From the NCBI GenBank assembly GCA_036378075.1, contig DASUXE010000113.1, forward strand, positions 1-29,178: 29,178 nucleotides of DNA. The letters are read 5' to 3'. Under the pieces are notes generated by a model, which had not been told where the DNA came from, ran no database searches, and saw nothing but the letters and a program-made list of their open reading frames with translations. The DNA comes from Gammaproteobacteria bacterium (GTDB lineage Bacteria; Pseudomonadota; Gammaproteobacteria; Natronospirales; REEB76). Positions 1 through 5,805 of the stretch are shown here, piece after piece (position 1 is the first letter of the stretch; every line of letters begins with the position of its first letter). A program made the position numbers and the translations under genes.

Positions 1-952
1 GTTCGCCACAGATCCTCGTGCCCTCCGCATCGGTTTCCGGCAGTACCAGGAGGAATTCTTCGCCACCATAGCGGCCAAACGTTTCATGTTCCGCTTTGCC
101 GTCACGGCCGATACGGTCCAGCTCGCGGATCTCGCCCGCGACCCGATTGGCAAACTCGCGCAGCATTTCGTCACCAGCCAGATGACCGTGACGGTCGTTG
201 ATCTCCTTGAAATGATCGATGTCCATCAGGCAGACGCCGAAACCACGGCCGGTTCGCAGGGCGCGGGCACGTTCCTGTTCCAGGATCTCGAGAATATGCC
301 GCCGGTTGTATACGCCGGTGAGGTCATCGTGGGTAGCGAGTTCCTGATTGCGGCTGAGTGCCTCGGCGAGTTCACGATTGCGGTGTGCAAGCGTATCGCG
401 CAGCCGGCCGACGTAGCTGCCGAAAAATGCCAGCCAGATCAGGGTAACGATCAGCACCGCAAATTGGAGCAGTTCAAGTGACAGCGGTTCCATGCTGATA
501 TCCGCGGACGTTTCACGCAGCACGATGGCGCCGTAACCGAGCAGCGCGAATGCGGTCAGCCACAGATATTGTGCGCGCCGCAGCCGGAAGATGCCGAACA
601 GGAAAATTACCACGTACAGCAGCAGCATGATGCCGCGCACCCGTGGCGTGAATGAGACCAGCAGCATGACCCAGAACGTCGCCAGCAGCATCTGTGGCAG
701 TGTCAAACTGGGATCCGACGAGCGCAAGTTGATGCCGCTACGCAGCAGTACAAAAAACATGATGTTGCCGGCCAAGGTCAGGCCGACCGCCAAAACAAAC
801 CAGGGAAATGTCAGATTGATGTAACCAAGTAGATAGCAGTAGATGGTGAGACCTACCCACAGGAGATACGACAACGCGGCCATGAAAAAGCGCTTGAGGC
901 GCAAAGCCTGCTTCGGATCGTCAGGAAAGAGCTGCCAAACCACGCGGTACAC
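1..952 (-). CDS. Membrane-bound diguanylate cyclase (GGDEF domain); 3' end runs off the window edge
   Basis: Not in the ORF track because it is truncated, so translated by hand. About 6 hydrophobic segments (FFMAALSYLLWVG...) are followed by 'THDDLTGVYNRR', 'CLMDIDHFKEINDRHGHLAGDEML' and 'GRYGGEEF'. Start is uncertain: GTG at 952 or ATG at 883, same frame. Confidence 0.88.
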   Translation of the reverse strand, partial: MYRVVWQLFPDDPKQALRLKRFFMAALSYLLWVGLTIYCYLLGYINLTFPWFVLAVGLTLAGNIMFFVLLRSGINLRSSDPSLTLPQMLLATFWVMLLVSFTPRVRGIMLLLYVVIFLFGIFRLRRAQYLWLTAFALLGYGAIVLRETSADISMEPLSLELLQFAVLIVTLIWLAFFGSYVGRLRDTLAHRNRELAEALSRNQELATHDDLTGVYNRRHILEILEQERARALRTGRGFGVCLMDIDHFKEINDRHGHLAGDEMLREFANRVAGEIRELDRIGRDGKAEHETFGRYGGEEFLLVLPETDAEGTRICGE

Positions 953-1043
953 CTGAGACCGGGAATCATTCCCGGCCCGGAGAGTGCCATAGCCGGGGCG
1001 GAAACCCAAGCGGCAATTTGATCGGCGGCGAAATGCGGGATTA

Positions 1044-2219
1044 TTAGCCCAGAATCCGTTCCTGCCGGTAAAGCCAGACCGCCAGCCAGGACAGCAACAG
1101 ACCCAGCAACAGCGTGCTGCCAACGGACGTTGCCACGAACAACGGCTTGAGGAGTTCGCCCTTGAGCAGGGAGGTCATCAATACATTCTGGCTCATGGTC
1201 GGTATCGCCATCATCCACAAGGACGGTTGTGCCGGTGACAGCATCAAGCCGAAGGCCGGGATCATCGGCAAGACAAATACAAATGAAAGCCAGGTCTGCG
1301 CTTCCTTGTAGCTGCGCGTGAATGAAGCCACCACGGTCAGCAGTGCCGCAATAAATACCGTGAACGGTACGCCGATCAGGAACATGTTCAGCGCGGTCGG
1401 AATGTCGAAGTTCACCGCGATATCCAGTTGCGAGATGTGGATAAAACCCTGGCAGGCATAGAACGCGACCACCGCCAACGCCAGTGACAAGGCACAGAAC
1501 GCCGTGACTGCAACCAGCTTCGCAGCAACCAGGGCAGTGCGCGAGATTGCGGTGGTGAGCAGCGGTTCCAGCGAGCCGCGCTCGCGTTCGCCGGCGGTGG
1601 CATCGATGGCGAGATAGAAACCACCCATGATGGTGGCGAACAGGAAAAAATACGGCAGAAAACCCAGCACCAGAACTGCACGCGATCTCGGTGTCGAGAC
1701 GTCCACCTTCTCGATCGCCAACGGCGACAGTATCCCGCCGGGATTCGTTCCGCGCGCCAGCAGCCGAAGGCTGCTGATTTCACGCGCATAGGCGTCGAGC
1801 AGATCGCGCGCGCGGCGCACGTTCTTGGTGGCCGATTGCCGCGAAGCGTCCTCGATCAGTTGCAGAGTCGCCGGTTTTCCGGCACTGAAGGCTGTGGCGT
1901 AGTCTTTGCCGATCACCAGCACCACATCCTGTCGGCCAGTCGTCACCGCGGCACGTGGATCGCCGGGCGCCGCTTCGATTTCGGTGTCATGCTGTTTCAG
2001 GTATTCAACAAGTCCGGGTGCGTATTGCGCGCCGGCTACCGGCAACTTGAGCGGTTTGTCGCGATTGCTTATCTGCTGGTTTACGATGGCATTCATCATC
2101 ACGGTATAGAACACCGGTCCGAACAGCGGACCGAAAACCAGTACCGTGAGCAGCGTACGCCGGTCGCGCAGATTGTCGACGACTTCCTTGCGCAGCACAC
2201 TCCACAATTGGCGCATCAT
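1044..2219 (-). CDS. ABC-2 type exporter permease, NatB/YhaP-like
   Basis: N-terminal 'KEVVDNLRDRRTL' plus a TM helix, a large extracytoplasmic loop, then 5 TM helices with the 'AGERERGSLEPLLTT' motif. Start overlaps the stop of the ATPase gene (ATGA). Confidence 0.88.
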   Translation of the reverse strand: MMRQLWSVLRKEVVDNLRDRRTLLTVLVFGPLFGPVFYTVMMNAIVNQQISNRDKPLKLPVAGAQYAPGLVEYLKQHDTEIEAAPGDPRAAVTTGRQDVVLVIGKDYATAFSAGKPATLQLIEDASRQSATKNVRRARDLLDAYAREISSLRLLARGTNPGGILSPLAIEKVDVSTPRSRAVLVLGFLPYFFLFATIMGGFYLAIDATAGERERGSLEPLLTTAISRTALVAAKLVAVTAFCALSLALAVVAFYACQGFIHISQLDIAVNFDIPTALNMFLIGVPFTVFIAALLTVVASFTRSYKEAQTWLSFVFVLPMIPAFGLMLSPAQPSLWMMAIPTMSQNVLMTSLLKGELLKPLFVATSVGSTLLLGLLLSWLAVWLYRQERILG

Positions 2220-2950
2220 GCCGATCCCTCCGCCGGTTCACCTGCAAGCTTGACGAAGGCCTCCTCCAGATCCTGTTCGCCGGCCTGTTGCCGCAATGTA
2301 TCCGGCGTGCCGTGCGCAACGATATGGCCTTGTGCGATGATCACGATGTCATCGCACAAGGCGGCGACCTCCTGCATGATATGGCTCGAGAACACTACAC
2401 AATGTCCCTGTTCGCGCAATTTGCGGATCAGGCTGCGCAAGGCACGCGTTGCCATGACGTCCAGACCATTGGTGGGTTCGTCCAGAACCAGGTTGCGGGG
2501 CCCATGTACCATCGCTCGCGCCAGGGCCACCTTGATGCGTTGTCCCTGTGAAAACCCCTTGGCCTTGCGGTCGGCGAATTCCCCGATCTCGAGCAGCTTA
2601 ATCAAATCCTCAACCCGCGCCGTCAGTTGCCGGCCATGCAAACCGTTCAGCTCGCCAAAATAGCGGATGTTCTCGCGCGCCGACAGCCGTGGATAAAGAC
2701 CGCTCGCGTGTGGCAGCACCCCGAGTTTCAAGCGCACCGCGTTGTCATCGGCAAGCACATTGCTGCCGTCGACATTCACGTTGCCGCCGTCTGCCCTGAG
2801 CACCGTCGAGATGATACGCAAGGTTGTGGATTTCCCGGCACCGTTGGGACCCAGCAGACCGGTAATGCAACCGTCCGGCGCGCGAAACGATACATCCTGC
2901 AGCGCCTGGACCGCACCGAAATGCTTACTGACATTCTGGACTTCGATCAT
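2216..2950 (-). CDS. ABC exporter ATP-binding protein, NatA-like
   Basis: Walker A GPNGAGKS, signature variant FSQGQ, Walker B LVLDEPT, H-loop SSH. Start placed at MIEVQ (2950), which overlaps the upstream stop (ATGA). Confidence 0.92.
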   Translation of the reverse strand: MIEVQNVSKHFGAVQALQDVSFRAPDGCITGLLGPNGAGKSTTLRIISTVLRADGGNVNVDGSNVLADDNAVRLKLGVLPHASGLYPRLSARENIRYFGELNGLHGRQLTARVEDLIKLLEIGEFADRKAKGFSQGQRIKVALARAMVHGPRNLVLDEPTNGLDVMATRALRSLIRKLREQGHCVVFSSHIMQEVAALCDDIVIIAQGHIVAHGTPDTLRQQAGEQDLEEAFVKLAGEPAEGSA

Positions 2951-4443
2951 GGGGTCGGTCCGTTGAAATTGACGAAGAACGGGAAAGCGCGGATCGATTT
3001 CACACATTTTGTGTCCAATCCGCTGACTGAAGCGCTGGCAACGAATTGCGCCATGAGTTTCGGTATGCAACCGCGCATGGCGTTGCCATGACCCTGGCCG
3101 GGAACCACCAGCGACAGGCTGTTGGAGAGCGTTTTTGCGGCATGTGATGCGTTGGCGGGCGGAGTGATGGGATCATCCTCACCCGACAGCAACAGCACCG
3201 GCTTGTCGGATTTGACCGGCTGCTTGAAATCAGGCTCCATCACGCCGCGTGGCCAGACCGAACAGCTTTTTATCAGCGCTTCAATCGGCTTGCCGCCCAG
3301 ATAGCTGGCGGCGGACCGGCGTATCTCGGCATTGTGCGAATAGAACGGCACATCTTCGGTACACAGCACAGCGGCATTCATACCTGCAGCGATGCCTTCG
3401 TCCACCGACCGGGTGAAAATCAGCGACTGCGCCATCAGCGGTGCGTAATCATGAGCCACGGCTGCCTGATGAATCAGCAAGGGTAGCAGCGCAGCCGTGT
3501 CACTTGAATAACTCATCAGCCGGATCGCTACCGCGACCTTGTTCCAGTCAAGCGAACGGTTAATCAATGTGGCATCGACGGGATCGCGCAATTGTACGGT
3601 TACCGGACGATGTTTCAAATTCTGCTGCAAGGCGGCGAATTCATTGACCAGATTCGGAAATGCCCTGTGGCACTGGGTTTGTCTGGCACAACGAGTAAAC
3701 ACGCCGTCAAGGGCCTGCTGTGCATCCAGTGAAACATCTGCACCTACATTCCAGTCGGCGGGCACCACGCCATCGAGGATCACGCTGCGAACGTGCGCGG
3801 TATAGTCGCGCAGGTATTCGAACGCGACACGCGTGCCATAGGAGATGCCATACAGATCGATCTGCCTGTATCCGAGCGCAGCACGCACTTGATCCAGATC
3901 CTTGACAGCAACTGTGGTGGTGTAGAAACGCGGATCCCCTTTCAACTGTGCAAGGCAGACTTTTGTCTCGTGCACGATCGATACTTCATTGCCCGGACTA
4001 TCGTCCGATTCGGGACAGTTGAGTGGATTTGATTGGCCTGTGCCACGTTGATCCACCAGCACGATGTCGTGATCGGCACGGATTCGATCGAATGCCGCAG
4101 CCTCTGTGACAAAGGCTTCGGTGGACGCCTGGCCTGGACCGCCGGCGATAAAAAACAGGGCATCGGCAGACGGTTTGTTGGCGTGCGCTGGCAGTACCGC
4201 AATGTGCAGACTGATTTTTTTGCTATCAGGTCTGGTGCGGTCTTCCGGCACTGCAAGCGACGTGCATTTCGCCTGCATATGAAATGCAGAATCGGGCATG
4301 CCGATCTGGCACGGTGTGAACACTGCCGCAACTGGGTTTTGCGGCTGGGCCCGCGTGCCGTGCATCCACGGTACCAGTGCCACGAACAACAGCCACCCCA
4401 GCGGATAGCGCGAAGCGTGCCGGTAAAGAGTTGTTCCAGACAT
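2947..4443 (-). CDS. Secreted alpha/beta-hydrolase, TAP-like (tripeptidyl aminopeptidase-like, S33-type) peptidase
   Basis: Signal-peptide-like N-terminus, GGPGQA oxyanion motif, DQRGTG, nucleophile elbow GISYG, 'GEDDPITP' Asp, 'QGHG' His, several Cys. Confidence 0.85.
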   Translation of the reverse strand: MSGTTLYRHASRYPLGWLLFVALVPWMHGTRAQPQNPVAAVFTPCQIGMPDSAFHMQAKCTSLAVPEDRTRPDSKKISLHIAVLPAHANKPSADALFFIAGGPGQASTEAFVTEAAAFDRIRADHDIVLVDQRGTGQSNPLNCPESDDSPGNEVSIVHETKVCLAQLKGDPRFYTTTVAVKDLDQVRAALGYRQIDLYGISYGTRVAFEYLRDYTAHVRSVILDGVVPADWNVGADVSLDAQQALDGVFTRCARQTQCHRAFPNLVNEFAALQQNLKHRPVTVQLRDPVDATLINRSLDWNKVAVAIRLMSYSSDTAALLPLLIHQAAVAHDYAPLMAQSLIFTRSVDEGIAAGMNAAVLCTEDVPFYSHNAEIRRSAASYLGGKPIEALIKSCSVWPRGVMEPDFKQPVKSDKPVLLLSGEDDPITPPANASHAAKTLSNSLSLVVPGQGHGNAMRGCIPKLMAQFVASASVSGLDTKCVKSIRAFPFFVNFNGPTP

Positions 4444-4601
4444 TACCGGGATCTACCGGCTCCGGATTTTCTGCTGGCCGTCAGCGCAACAGTGACGGCG
4501 ACGCCGATACCGATGCCGACACCCCAGTTGCCGCTCGAGGAAGCAATCGCCGACGCCATGGCGATTCCAAGCACCAGATTGAATGGGAAAGCGTATTTCA
4601 T
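4443..4601 (-). CDS. 52-aa small hydrophobic, glycine-zipper-like membrane peptide (not in ORF track)
   Basis: Manual translation: MKYAFPFNLVLGIAMASAIASSSGNWGVGIGIGVAVTVALTASRKSGAGRSR*. Its ATG overlaps the HTH stop (ATGA, 4598-4601) and its TAA overlaps the peptidase ATG (TAATG, 4441-4445). Confidence 0.8.
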   Translation of the reverse strand: MKYAFPFNLVLGIAMASAIASSSGNWGVGIGIGVAVTVALTASRKSGAGRSR

Positions 4602-4831
4602 GAGGGTTCTCCCGATGTAGATGTAGAAACTGGATCTGCGACATCAAAGACAAAAATCTCTTCGATCGGTTTGCCGAACAGCTTGGCGATACTGAACGCC
4701 AGCGGCAGGCTGGGATCGTACTTCTCGGTTTCAATCGCGTTAATGGTCTGGCGCGACACGTTCAGGCGTTCAGCCAGCTCTGCCTGAGTCCAGCGGTGTT
4801 CGGCGCGCAGCACGTGAATGCGGTTTTTCAC
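4598..4831 (-). CDS. Xre/Cro-CI (HTH_3) family transcriptional regulator, 77 aa
   Basis: '(M)KNRIHVLRAEHRWTQAELAERLNVSRQTINAIETEKYDPSLPLAFSIAKLF' is a canonical Xre HTH. The GTG start at 4831 overlaps the upstream stop (GTGA). Confidence 0.92.
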   Translation of the reverse strand: MKNRIHVLRAEHRWTQAELAERLNVSRQTINAIETEKYDPSLPLAFSIAKLFGKPIEEIFVFDVADPVSTSTSGEPS

Positions 4832-5235
4832 CGGTAGCGCCTGCGCAGGAGCAGACGCGCGACGGCGTAGATCATGGCGACGCTGACCCAGGCCCACCAG
4901 CTGCCGATCGCAGGAAAGCCGGTATCACCTTCGAGAAAGGTATACGTCAGTCCCAGGAACGCGGTACCTGCGGCCGCAATGGCGAAGGCTTCGGTCTCGA
5001 TCCGGCGCTGCAGTTCGTCCATCTGGGTGACATAGCGGAAGACCGACCAGATCATGAACGCGGCAGGGAGCATGGGCGACAGCGCCAGCAACATCCGGGC
5101 CGGGCCGGAAATCCCCAGTTTGATGAGCTTTATGGAGCCAAGCAGGACCACCACATAGCTCACCCCGCCAATGACCGTTTCAATCTGGTGGCGCCGGCAG
5201 AGCTGAGTAGGGGTAAGTGGATTTTTTGAATTCAT
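4828..5235 (-). CDS. Small 4-TM membrane protein of the type often paired with Xre regulators ('DELQRRI' motif)
   Basis: 135 aa with four hydrophobic segments around a 'MDELQRRIETEA' linker and a basic C-terminus. First gene of the operon. Confidence 0.8.
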   Translation of the reverse strand: MNSKNPLTPTQLCRRHQIETVIGGVSYVVVLLGSIKLIKLGISGPARMLLALSPMLPAAFMIWSVFRYVTQMDELQRRIETEAFAIAAAGTAFLGLTYTFLEGDTGFPAIGSWWAWVSVAMIYAVARLLLRRRYR

Positions 5236-5241
5236 GCCAAA

Positions 5242-5270
5242 AGTGTAGAAGACACATTACAATTAGTCAA
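5242..5270 (-). promoter_or_regulatory. sigma70-type promoter, probably leaderless
   Basis: Minus strand reads TTGACT (-35, 5270-5265), a 17-nt spacer, TACACT (-10, 5247-5242), 6 nt, then ATG at 5235. There is no room for a Shine-Dalgarno sequence. Confidence 0.7.
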
Positions 5271-5302
5271 GCACACTTGACTCAATATCGAGAGTGCTTT
5301 AC
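5245..5302. promoter_or_regulatory. Three phased 16-bp operator-like boxes, likely sites for the Xre autoregulator
   Basis: Perfect 6-4-6 inverted repeat GTCAAG-caca-CTTGAC at 5266-5281, with degenerate copies GTAGAA-gaca-CATTAC (5245-5260) and ATCGAG-agtg-CTTTAC (5287-5302). The period is exactly 21 bp. Confidence 0.62.
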
Positions 5303-5421
5303 CTACGGTTAATCCGAAGTTAGCTGACCGGCATTCAGTTGAACGGCTTCGGACACCTGGCGGCCATCGCTTGCGTACTTGAACAGGGCGTATATGCTTG
5401 AATTCAGGCAGGGAGGGGAAC

Positions 5422-5805
5422 ATGCCACGGGTCATACACTTTGAGATCCATGCCGATGAGCCGGAGCGTGCCATACGCTTTTACCGCTCGGTGTTTGGCT
5501 GGGAATTCACTCCGCTACGCAACATGCCGGTCGATTACTGGGCGGTCCGGACCGGTGACACCGGTCCCGGCATCGACGGGGGTCTGATGCGCCGGCTCAC
5601 GCCGGTGGACGGCGCCGCAGTGACTGCATTTGCGTGCACAGTCGCAGTCTCGGATCTGGACAACTATCTGATGAAAGTCTCGACCAGCGGCGGGCAGCTC
5701 GCGGTATCAAAAATGGCAATTTCAGGTTTCGGCTGGCTGGCCTACTGCAAGGATACGGAAGGCAACATGTTCGGCATGATGCAGGCAGATGAATCCGCGA
5801 AATAA
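5422..5805 (+). CDS. VOC family (glyoxalase/bleomycin-resistance-like) protein
   Basis: 'VIHFEIHADEPERAIRFYRSVFGWEF...GIDGGL...AYCKDTEGNMFGMMQ'. SD GGAGGG lies before the ATG at 5422. Confidence 0.88.
   Translation: MPRVIHFEIHADEPERAIRFYRSVFGWEFTPLRNMPVDYWAVRTGDTGPGIDGGLMRRLTPVDGAAVTAFACTVAVSDLDNYLMKVSTSGGQLAVSKMAISGFGWLAYCKDTEGNMFGMMQADESAK

Follow-up and report, generated by a model that had tools for sequence, protein, structure and literature searches.

What brings a small membrane protein, a helix-turn-helix (HTH) regulator, a 52-residue peptide, a secreted serine hydrolase and both halves of an ATP-binding cassette (ABC) exporter together in one operon, and does such an operon act as a single machine? 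The locus that raises this question lies on contig DASUXE010000113.1 of a gammaproteobacterial metagenome-assembled genome (MAG; GCA_036378075.1, 1.94 Mb, 81% complete), and the stretch of 29,178 nucleotides that we analyzed is referred to here as the window. Six open reading frames (ORFs) run head to tail on its minus strand from position 5235 to 1044 and are joined by five overlaps of start and stop codons (GTGA 4828–4831, ATGA 4598–4601, TAATG 4441–4445, ATGA 2947–2950 and ATGA 2216–2219), each of which proved exact on that strand as listed in a first-pass annotation. That annotation had read the six genes as a self-contained module that senses, cleaves and exports peptides. The genes are, in the order of transcription:

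4828–5235, minus strand: four-helix membrane protein of 135 amino acids, partner of the HTH regulator, without Pfam or NCBIfam match
4598–4831, minus strand: CylR2-type Xre/HTH_3 regulator of 77 amino acids (HTH_3, E 3.6e-15), with a GTG start that overlaps the stop of the membrane-protein gene
4443–4601, minus strand: gene of a hydrophobic, glycine-rich membrane peptide of 52 amino acids, without family match
2947–4443, minus strand: secreted S33 (TAP/Hip1-like) serine hydrolase of 498 amino acids, with Abhydrolase_1 and TAP-like (PF08386) domains
2216–2950, minus strand: ABC ATPase, NatA-like (ABC_tran, E 9e-31)
1044–2219, minus strand: ABC-2 permease, NatB-like (ABC2_membrane_3)

The answer that we favor, with moderate confidence, is that the operon represents a genus-level fusion of a NatAB exporter carrying a docked hydrolase, a switch of the CylR1/CylR2 type and a small peptide, all placed behind one leaderless promoter.

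The hydrolase–NatA–NatB trio

The hydrolase matches PF00561 (E 3e-22) as well as PF08386 (E 7e-17), and its closest relative of solved structure is Hip1/CaeA of M. tuberculosis (E 8e-19 over the full length). Across 49 orthologues the triad residues Ser201 (within GxSYG), Asp424 and His452 are invariant, as are eight cysteines, with C45 and C394 additionally conserved only in a set of 16 sequences; the conserved cysteines fit with a disulfide-bonded periplasmic hydrolase. The orthologues also share a C-terminal PFFxxFxGPxP tail, and the signal-like segment at the amino terminus varies among relatives. For one orthologue of the same genus (genome G004, locus L029) we observed a lipobox-like start, LLLLVAAAC, as opposed to the ordinary signal-like amino terminus of the window copy, indicating that the anchoring of the hydrolase varies within the genus. 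The window protein resembles Hip1/CaeA (Rv2224c) and the Streptomyces enzymes Tap/SlpD (MEROPS S33, PF08386) in its alpha/beta hydrolase fold, cap, TAP-like domain, Ser-Asp-His triad and location in the cell envelope. The similarity is nevertheless distant, and the window orthologue group differs from Hip1 and Tap by its eight to ten conserved cysteines, by the PFFxxFxGPxP tail and by its linkage to an ABC exporter; to our knowledge, no such ABC partner exists for Hip1 or Tap.

For the nucleotide-binding domain of NatA, the nearest solved structures are the ABCA lipid transporters (E 1e-55 to 1e-60), with NosF at 1e-41. The permease NatB carries a periplasmic domain of about 120 amino acids between helices 1 and 2 (AlphaFold model, predicted local distance difference test (pLDDT) score of 83), and by fold it comes closest to the insect ceramide exporter ABCH-9C, followed by NosY of NosDFY. 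Its best NCBIfam match is NF041647 (E 3e-70), a fusion of a permease with a CPBP protease, of which the permease half aligns to the full length of NatB. The protease in that fusion is an intramembrane CPBP metalloprotease, whereas here it is a separate periplasmic serine hydrolase; the fusion provides an independent link of this permease type to a protease. Weak NCBIfam matches comprise SagH and a lantibiotic-protection ATPase. Like NatAB, YhaQP and LnrLMN of B. subtilis, the window pair combines an ATPase with a six-helix ABC2_membrane_3 permease whose helices 1 and 2 are separated by a large external domain; the external domains of the B. subtilis proteins adopt a fold without known relatives and have no assigned function (PMC11466899). 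In contrast to B. subtilis NatAB, the pair in the window and in about 100 other loci is preceded and overlapped by the gene of a secreted S33 hydrolase.

This linkage extends far beyond the window. The hydrolase was found in 50 of 61 related genomes, and order as well as orientation of the trio are kept in all 20 loci sampled at the level of the order. A class-wide sample yielded a strong hydrolase orthologue in 10 of 301 genomes, with the same trio in each of the eight loci fetched, and a scan of species representatives added 80 loci from Steroidobacteraceae, Woeseiaceae, Rhodanobacter, Dyella, Lysobacter, Cellvibrionaceae, Anaerolineales, Acidobacteriota and Myxococcus. Altogether, of 108 loci that carry a strong hydrolase orthologue (Gammaproteobacteria, Chloroflexota, Acidobacteriota and Myxococcota; a few contigs are counted twice, as two routes led to them), 104 have natA and natB directly downstream, and in 63 of 91 loci the hydrolase and ATPase genes share a 4-nucleotide overlap of stop and start. 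We conclude that the trio is an ancient, widespread module, of which our search of the literature for a hydrolase–NatAB link found no published description. Around the trio we observed further recurring genes, namely mnmE- and yidC-like genes (named from amino-terminal sequences only) 3–6 kb downstream of the hydrolase in many of the loci L021–L130 and an Opp/Dpp-like peptide importer upstream in 13 loci; these neighbors probably reflect synteny and not function.

The most conventional reading of the exporter genes would be an ordinary NatAB sodium pump next to unrelated, merely tightly packed neighbors. Such a reading could draw on the family-level likeness to ABC-2 proteins of the NatAB type and on the listing of B. 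subtilis NatAB as a sodium exporter (PMC11466899). It conflicts with the near-universal linkage and the start/stop overlap with the hydrolase, with the complex predicted below and with the nearness of NatA and NatB to lipid-type exporters; furthermore, no gene of a two-component regulator adjoins the operon among the window ORFs scanned. We hold a plain sodium exporter to be very improbable, and the sodium-pump label is probably wrong for the trio. The first-pass annotation had likewise argued against a sodium pump, and both the synteny across phyla and the high-scoring predicted complex make a plain two-gene pump unlikely.

The complex of NatB and the hydrolase was predicted from paired alignments of our own making (49 rows), using one copy of NatB and hydrolase residues 38–498. 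Three runs yielded complex scores of 0.87, 0.88 and 0.86, compared with 0.00 for the best of three controls; 58 of 80 solved complexes score this high, as do 2 of 110 mismatched pairs, a calibration that holds only roughly for own alignments. The runs share at least 92% of their contacts, and the partner pLDDT is at least 89. Predicted contacts connect the periplasmic domain of NatB (53–177) with the mature amino terminus (44–57), the cap (285–342) and the C-terminal tail (483–498) of the hydrolase, and include hydrolase residues 458–462, which lie beside the catalytic His452. Near-invariant positions among them are A67, P68, L70, R152, R156, G157 and D173 in NatB and P288, L319, L322, P488, F490, G495 and P498 in the hydrolase. 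As no sequence relative of NatB was found among solved structures, a complex already known to the model is an unlikely source of the score. The hydrolase is thereby predicted to dock on the periplasmic domain of NatB.

An ABC complex that holds a periplasmic partner, here a predicted one, is reminiscent of NosDFY and of the systems in which FtsEX acts with a hydrolase. The partner in NosDFY is a beta-helix copper–sulfur carrier, whereas in the window it is a serine hydrolase, and the membrane fold of FtsX differs from that of NatB. By analogy to FtsEX, ATP hydrolysis by NatAB might merely switch the docked hydrolase, with nothing being transported. The predicted stable docking of the cap and of residues 458–462 on the external domain of NatB would suit such mechanotransmission, as would the unassigned fold and function of this domain in the NatB family (PMC11466899). 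NatB shows, however, the type V exporter fold of true lipid and drug exporters and not the MacB/FtsX fold, and a cell-wall hydrolase domain is missing, rendering a pure switch improbable. The predicted docking together with the lipid-exporter folds points to a hydrolase-coupled exporter for an amphipathic substrate.

The CylR2-type cassette and its promoter

The regulator at the head of the operon matches an uncharacterised PbsX-family regulator (PDB 9K3W, E 7e-24) and CylR2 (1UTX, E 2.5e-12 over residues 3–62), and is 50% identical over 58 residues to the annotated cylR2 on the E. faecalis plasmid NZ_CP124909. On this plasmid, cylR1 ends where cylR2 starts; we noticed that cylR1 (94 amino acids, 2207–2491) is missing from the gene table of NZ_CP124909 (L224:2150–2206), although its ORF is intact and abuts cylR2. 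In the cytolysin operon of E. faecalis, CylR2 acts with CylR1, a small membrane protein encoded just upstream, and the pair offers a precedent for peptide sensing (Haas et al. 2002; Rumpel et al. 2004; reviewed in PMC3709268). The peptide to which the pair responds is CylLS'', and the mechanism behind this response has yet to be understood (PMC3709268; bioRxiv 10.1101/2024.08.13.607848).

The window shares with this pair a small Xre-type repressor (about 66–77 amino acids), the window HTH being homologous to CylR2, a gene for a small multi-helix membrane protein immediately upstream on the same transcript, the lack of a kinase relay and a palindromic operator over the promoter with GTCAAG/CTTGAC half-sites. 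It departs from the cyl locus in its three phased boxes, its predicted leaderless mRNA and its origin from a Gram-negative MAG, in a central operator spacing of 4 nucleotides as opposed to 5, and in that the controlled genes follow downstream in the same operon, whereas those of cyl are divergent. The first-pass annotation had compared the membrane protein and small repressor to the Bacillus pair SdpI/SdpR. In concept these are alike, as a membrane protein controls a small autorepressor upon encountering a peptide. SdpR is, however, an ArsR-family winged-helix protein, and the gene order of its pair is the opposite. Since the window HTH is of the Xre/CylR2 type, matching no ArsR-type family and reaching only a sub-threshold MarR_2 hit, the likeness to SdpI/SdpR holds by analogy only; the proposed pair at the head of the operon with a peptide-sensing precedent is retained, with CylR1/CylR2 as the model.

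The membrane protein has four predicted helices, with LP..LP in helix 2, DELQRR right after helix 2, a YGFLE motif and a C-terminal RRY. Searches of Pfam and NCBIfam with this protein and with the 52-residue peptide, permissive thresholds included, returned no family. A word-based homologue search recovered just 10 relatives of the membrane protein, so that a full profile search was needed; against 1.8 billion cluster representatives it returned 2,646 relatives at E ≤ 1e-3 and 1,084 at E ≤ 1e-10, none of them in a Pfam family. Metagenomes were scanned for cassettes with alignment A6, the broader alignment A5 having no sufficiently conserved stretch. In about 75 of 77 metagenomic loci a gene for an HTH protein of 65–75 amino acids lies directly 3' of the membrane-protein gene, mostly with a 4-nucleotide overlap, and the same succession holds for six of six sampled contigs of adequate length. 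Downstream of these metagenomic cassettes there is usually no co-directional cargo. The membrane protein and the 77-residue HTH protein constitute an autonomous two-gene cassette.

Upstream of the membrane-protein gene we delineated a predicted promoter and scored operator boxes with a weight matrix built from 119 boxes of distant metagenomic cassettes and scanned over the whole 29-kb window (about 29,000 positions):

5233–5270, minus strand: predicted sigma-70-type promoter, TTGACT, 17-nucleotide spacer and TACACT, with the –10 element 6 nucleotides from the ATG
5265–5282, minus strand: central strong operator AGTCAAGTGTGCTTGACT, rank 1 with 24.9 bits, its right half being the –35 element TTGACT
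5244–5261, minus strand: proximal weak operator box, rank 2 with 2.2 bits, overlapping the –10 element TACACT
5286–5303, minus strand: distal weak operator box, rank 4 with –0.2 bits, with a good left half GTAAAGCA and a poor right half

The –35 element occupies 5270–5265 and the –10 element 5247–5242, with the ATG at 5235. This layout, TTGACA-17-TACnnT-(6 to 8 nucleotides)-ATG without a Shine-Dalgarno sequence, is kept in nine loci of three genera, and the closeness of the –10 element to a start codon lacking a Shine-Dalgarno sequence implies a leaderless mRNA. The metagenomic cassettes, unlike the window promoter, carry GGAG leaders. In a cassette-free sister genus (L023–L028) we observed a hydrolase promoter TTGACG-17-CATCAT about 40 nucleotides upstream of the start, 8 nucleotides from the ATG, suggesting that leaderless expression may be common in this lineage; neither an operator nor a remnant of one was found in the sister-genus loci that lack the cassette.

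The three boxes are phased at exactly 21 bp. The central box is the sole GTMAAG-N4-CTTKAC site in the 1.94-Mb assembly, which suggests that the regulator serves this promoter alone, and nine related loci carry a box of 10–26 bits at its position, several of them with a proximal box as well. Counterparts of the proximal box reach 5–7 bits in the loci of genus g3, at the same 21-bp offset. The distal box is poorly conserved among relatives, with weak counterparts in loci L021 and L030. Because a matrix derived from independent metagenomic loci picks all three, the triple operator that had been proposed at this promoter is supported, though both outer boxes are weak. An initial reading of the half-sites as TGACA-N3-TGTCA palindromes was dropped, as the metagenomic cassettes show the 18-bp box TGTCAAGCATGCTTGACA as the true unit, in two copies that start about 54 and 29 nucleotides before the start codon. 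The cyl promoter of E. faecalis carries TTGTCAAGTGTCACTTGACAA, with the same GTCAAG/CTTGAC half-sites and one extra central base.

A regulator with such a precedent invites the reading of the operon as a dedicated antimicrobial-peptide resistance system, in which sensing of a cationic or hydrophobic peptide by the membrane protein leads to release of the repressor, after which the peptide is degraded by the peptidase and expelled, whole or in fragments, by the exporter. Besides the peptide-sensing precedent of CylR1/CylR2 (PMC3709268), this reading can point to pairs of ABC-2 exporter and protease as typical of loci for bacteriocin immunity or export, in line with the weak SagH and lantibiotic-protection matches and the CPBP fusion family, and to the predicted docking of the periplasmic hydrolase on the exporter. 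The trio, however, is conserved across phyla, stands beside the housekeeping-like mnmE/yidC genes in many Gammaproteobacteria and usually has no regulator, a pattern more in keeping with a constitutive function in the envelope than with a resistance island that is induced. As there is also neither a histidine kinase nor a BceAB-like architecture, and a peptide specificity cannot be inferred, we regard dedicated resistance as unlikely.

The 52-residue peptide and the joining of the modules

All four genomes of the genus retain the 52-residue ORF intact, at 59–68% identity, with pairwise ratios of nonsynonymous to synonymous substitution rates (dN/dS) of 0.08–0.24 and differences mainly at third codon positions. 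In three of these genomes its start and the HTH stop overlap, whereas in G004 it begins 8 nucleotides past the annotated ORF end; in all four it shares its last 1 or 10 nucleotides with the start of the hydrolase gene, although the hydrolase start codon has moved. Intactness, purifying selection and the kept overlaps together establish the ORF as a real gene. No paralogue was found in its own genome, and a screen for similar ORFs upstream of the hydrolase in 107 other loci flagged only the G004 orthologue, with a filter that missed two known orthologues of the genus. The peptide has two hydrophobic glycine-rich stretches and a basic tail, and a conserved A-x-A follows the first stretch; it could form a helical hairpin or, after signal cleavage, a single-pass protein.

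A counterpart by position was observed in two loci, L142 (2733–2924) and L143 (2015–2206), where a 63-residue glycine-zipper ORF with weak sub-threshold Gly-zipper Pfam matches lies 12 nucleotides after the HTH gene of a distant cassette composed of two membrane paralogues followed by the HTH; a BLASTP comparison of the peptide with the L142 ORF was not significant (E 0.32).

These features raise the prospect of a closed loop with cytolysin-like auto-induction, in which the 52-residue product would be inserted or exported and trimmed by the hydrolase–exporter, and the membrane partner would read the processed form to lift the CylR2-type repression. In its layout the operon resembles the cyl locus, with a CylR1/R2-type pair, small peptide gene, serine hydrolase and ABC exporter; the peptide is under purifying selection and coupled to both neighbors in four genomes, the A-x-A motif could mark a signal-peptidase site, and the 63-residue ORF occupies the same post-HTH position in a distant cassette. 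If this were true, small glycine-zipper peptides would be natural ligands of the large membrane-protein/HTH cassette family. The peptide is nevertheless confined to one genus, and with its basic tail it has the look of a membrane protein of two helices or a single pass, not of a leader–core precursor, and no modification enzyme is nearby; the similarity to the 63-residue ORF falls short of significance, as given above. Both trio and cassette occur widely in its absence, which rules the peptide out as their general substrate or signal, though it may have a role specific to this genus. We consider the closed loop highly improbable.

How far the three parts belong together is evident from their distribution. 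The full six-gene set occurs in four genomes of one genus, whereas the cassette precedes the trio in about 17 of the 108 loci. These comprise the four genomes of the window genus and four loci fetched from genus g3 of the same family, in which 10–20 nucleotides separate the HTH stop from the hydrolase start; one genome of a second family, with an extra gene for a 300-residue hydrolase in between; and two genomes of family f25 together with loci from Dyella, Rhodanobacter, Solimonas and MAGs, which may overlap with f25. In genus g2, again of the same family, the cassette is absent, the synteny of the hydrolase with a glyoxalase-type neighbor is kept and the hydrolase has its own, apparently leaderless promoter. 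Judged by this gene content, the six-gene operon is a mosaic of three separate modules joined in one genus. The cassette is placed ahead of a hydrolase in at least three families, and its recurrent placement by secreted hydrolases and by this exporter is more suggestive of a genuine regulatory connection than of insertion by chance.

Further arrangements of the cassette were seen. At L222:4360–6539 a metagenomic cassette is followed by NatA- and NatB-like genes with no S33 hydrolase, a second, independent link between cassette and exporter. In three lineages, G236 (L137:4578–5531), G053 (L035) and the contig P0030, the cassette lies directly ahead of an alpha/beta hydrolase of about 300 amino acids from a different subfamily; in G053 the gene stands between the HTH and S33 genes and its product has a signal-peptide-like start, and in G236 a gene for an outer-membrane beta-barrel comes next.

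This distribution also sorts the claims with which we started. One tightly coupled unit behind an operator-laden leaderless promoter is supported, but an ancestral self-contained six-gene module is not, as cassette and trio mostly stand apart elsewhere. Of the idea to sense, cleave and export, the coupled unit, the hydrolase–exporter pair and the sensor/repressor pair at its head persist; processing and export of its own 52-residue peptide is unlikely as a general role, because most trios have no such peptide.

The operon is flanked by two genes that recur at related loci:

2–952, minus strand: membrane-anchored GGDEF diguanylate cyclase, cut by the contig end (GGDEF, E 1e-26)
5422–5805, plus strand: divergent gene of the glyoxalase/bleomycin-resistance (VOC) family

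The GGDEF gene begins 91 nucleotides after NatB, across a gap without a terminator-like site, and lies 3' of NatB in 12 of the 20 order-level loci and in several more distant ones; it may be a conserved functional neighbor or a seventh cistron. We noted a perfect 17-bp palindrome, CCGGGAATGATTCCCGG, at 959–975 (minus strand), 6 nucleotides ahead of its GTG start, that could be a regulator site or a small hairpin. The VOC gene is the conserved upstream neighbor in most loci of the family, including the cassette-free ones of genus g2, and being kept next to loci with and without the cassette it marks the point of cassette insertion or loss.

A proposed mechanism and its meaning

Based on these observations, we propose the following working of the operon. 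In the trio, the S33 hydrolase would sit on the periplasmic domain of NatB with NatA supplying the power, forming an ATP-driven machine that extracts and cleaves, or exports and cleaves, its substrate. We infer the substrate class to be an amphipathic molecule of the envelope, such as a hydrophobic peptide or a lipid-linked or ester compound. In the cassette, the 77-residue HTH protein would repress its own promoter via three GTCAAG-N4-CTTGAC boxes, one of them strong and two weak, that cover the –35 and –10 elements, and its membrane partner, presumably made in a fixed ratio to it through the GTGA overlap, would relay a signal from the membrane or periplasm, presumably via the cytoplasmic DELQRR loop, and thereby release the repressor. 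With no intervening terminator, read-through would place the trio under the control of this switch. The 52-residue peptide would be a recent small membrane protein inserted between the two, and it may act as an accessory or modulator.

Several points weigh against this proposal. The complex score is the model's own confidence, obtained with a single copy of NatB and own alignments, and the interface residues as a set are no more conserved than other periplasmic parts (p = 0.14 for NatB and p = 0.84 for the hydrolase). The hydrolase family spans peptidases as well as esterases. The membrane partner of the window, with four helices and 135 amino acids compared with three helices and 94 amino acids in CylR1, has no detectable homology to the latter; a 40-sequence profile of its family gave a probability of 0.07% against CylR1 in hhalign, a comparison of low power given the single target sequence, so that the comparison with the cytolysin pair is carried by the HTH, by the arrangement of the genes and by the operator. 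Elsewhere the cassette is mostly free of cargo, and as most cassettes stand alone, its placement before the hydrolase could be partly incidental. Finally, co-transcription, leaderless initiation and repression are all read from the DNA sequence of an uncultured organism.

The findings bear on two families and on the reading of operons in general. Even six fully coupled genes can turn out to be a mosaic of recent origin, and this restricts how much function may be deduced from one operon. For the cassette, a CylR2-type family emerges with thousands of cluster representatives, no Pfam entry, a conserved cytoplasmic DELQRR motif in the membrane partner, a defined 18-bp operator and a ready read-out; how the signal passes from CylR1 to CylR2 has been unclear since 2002, and this family makes the question testable outside Enterococcus. 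For the exporter, NatAB-type transporters are routinely annotated as sodium pumps, yet at about 100 loci spread over at least four phyla their genes are coupled to that of a secreted S33 hydrolase, which is predicted with high confidence to sit on the external domain. This linkage points to an undescribed hydrolase-coupled exporter, the trio of which is found in cultured carriers such as Rhodanobacter, Dyella, Lysobacter, Pseudofulvimonas and Myxococcus.

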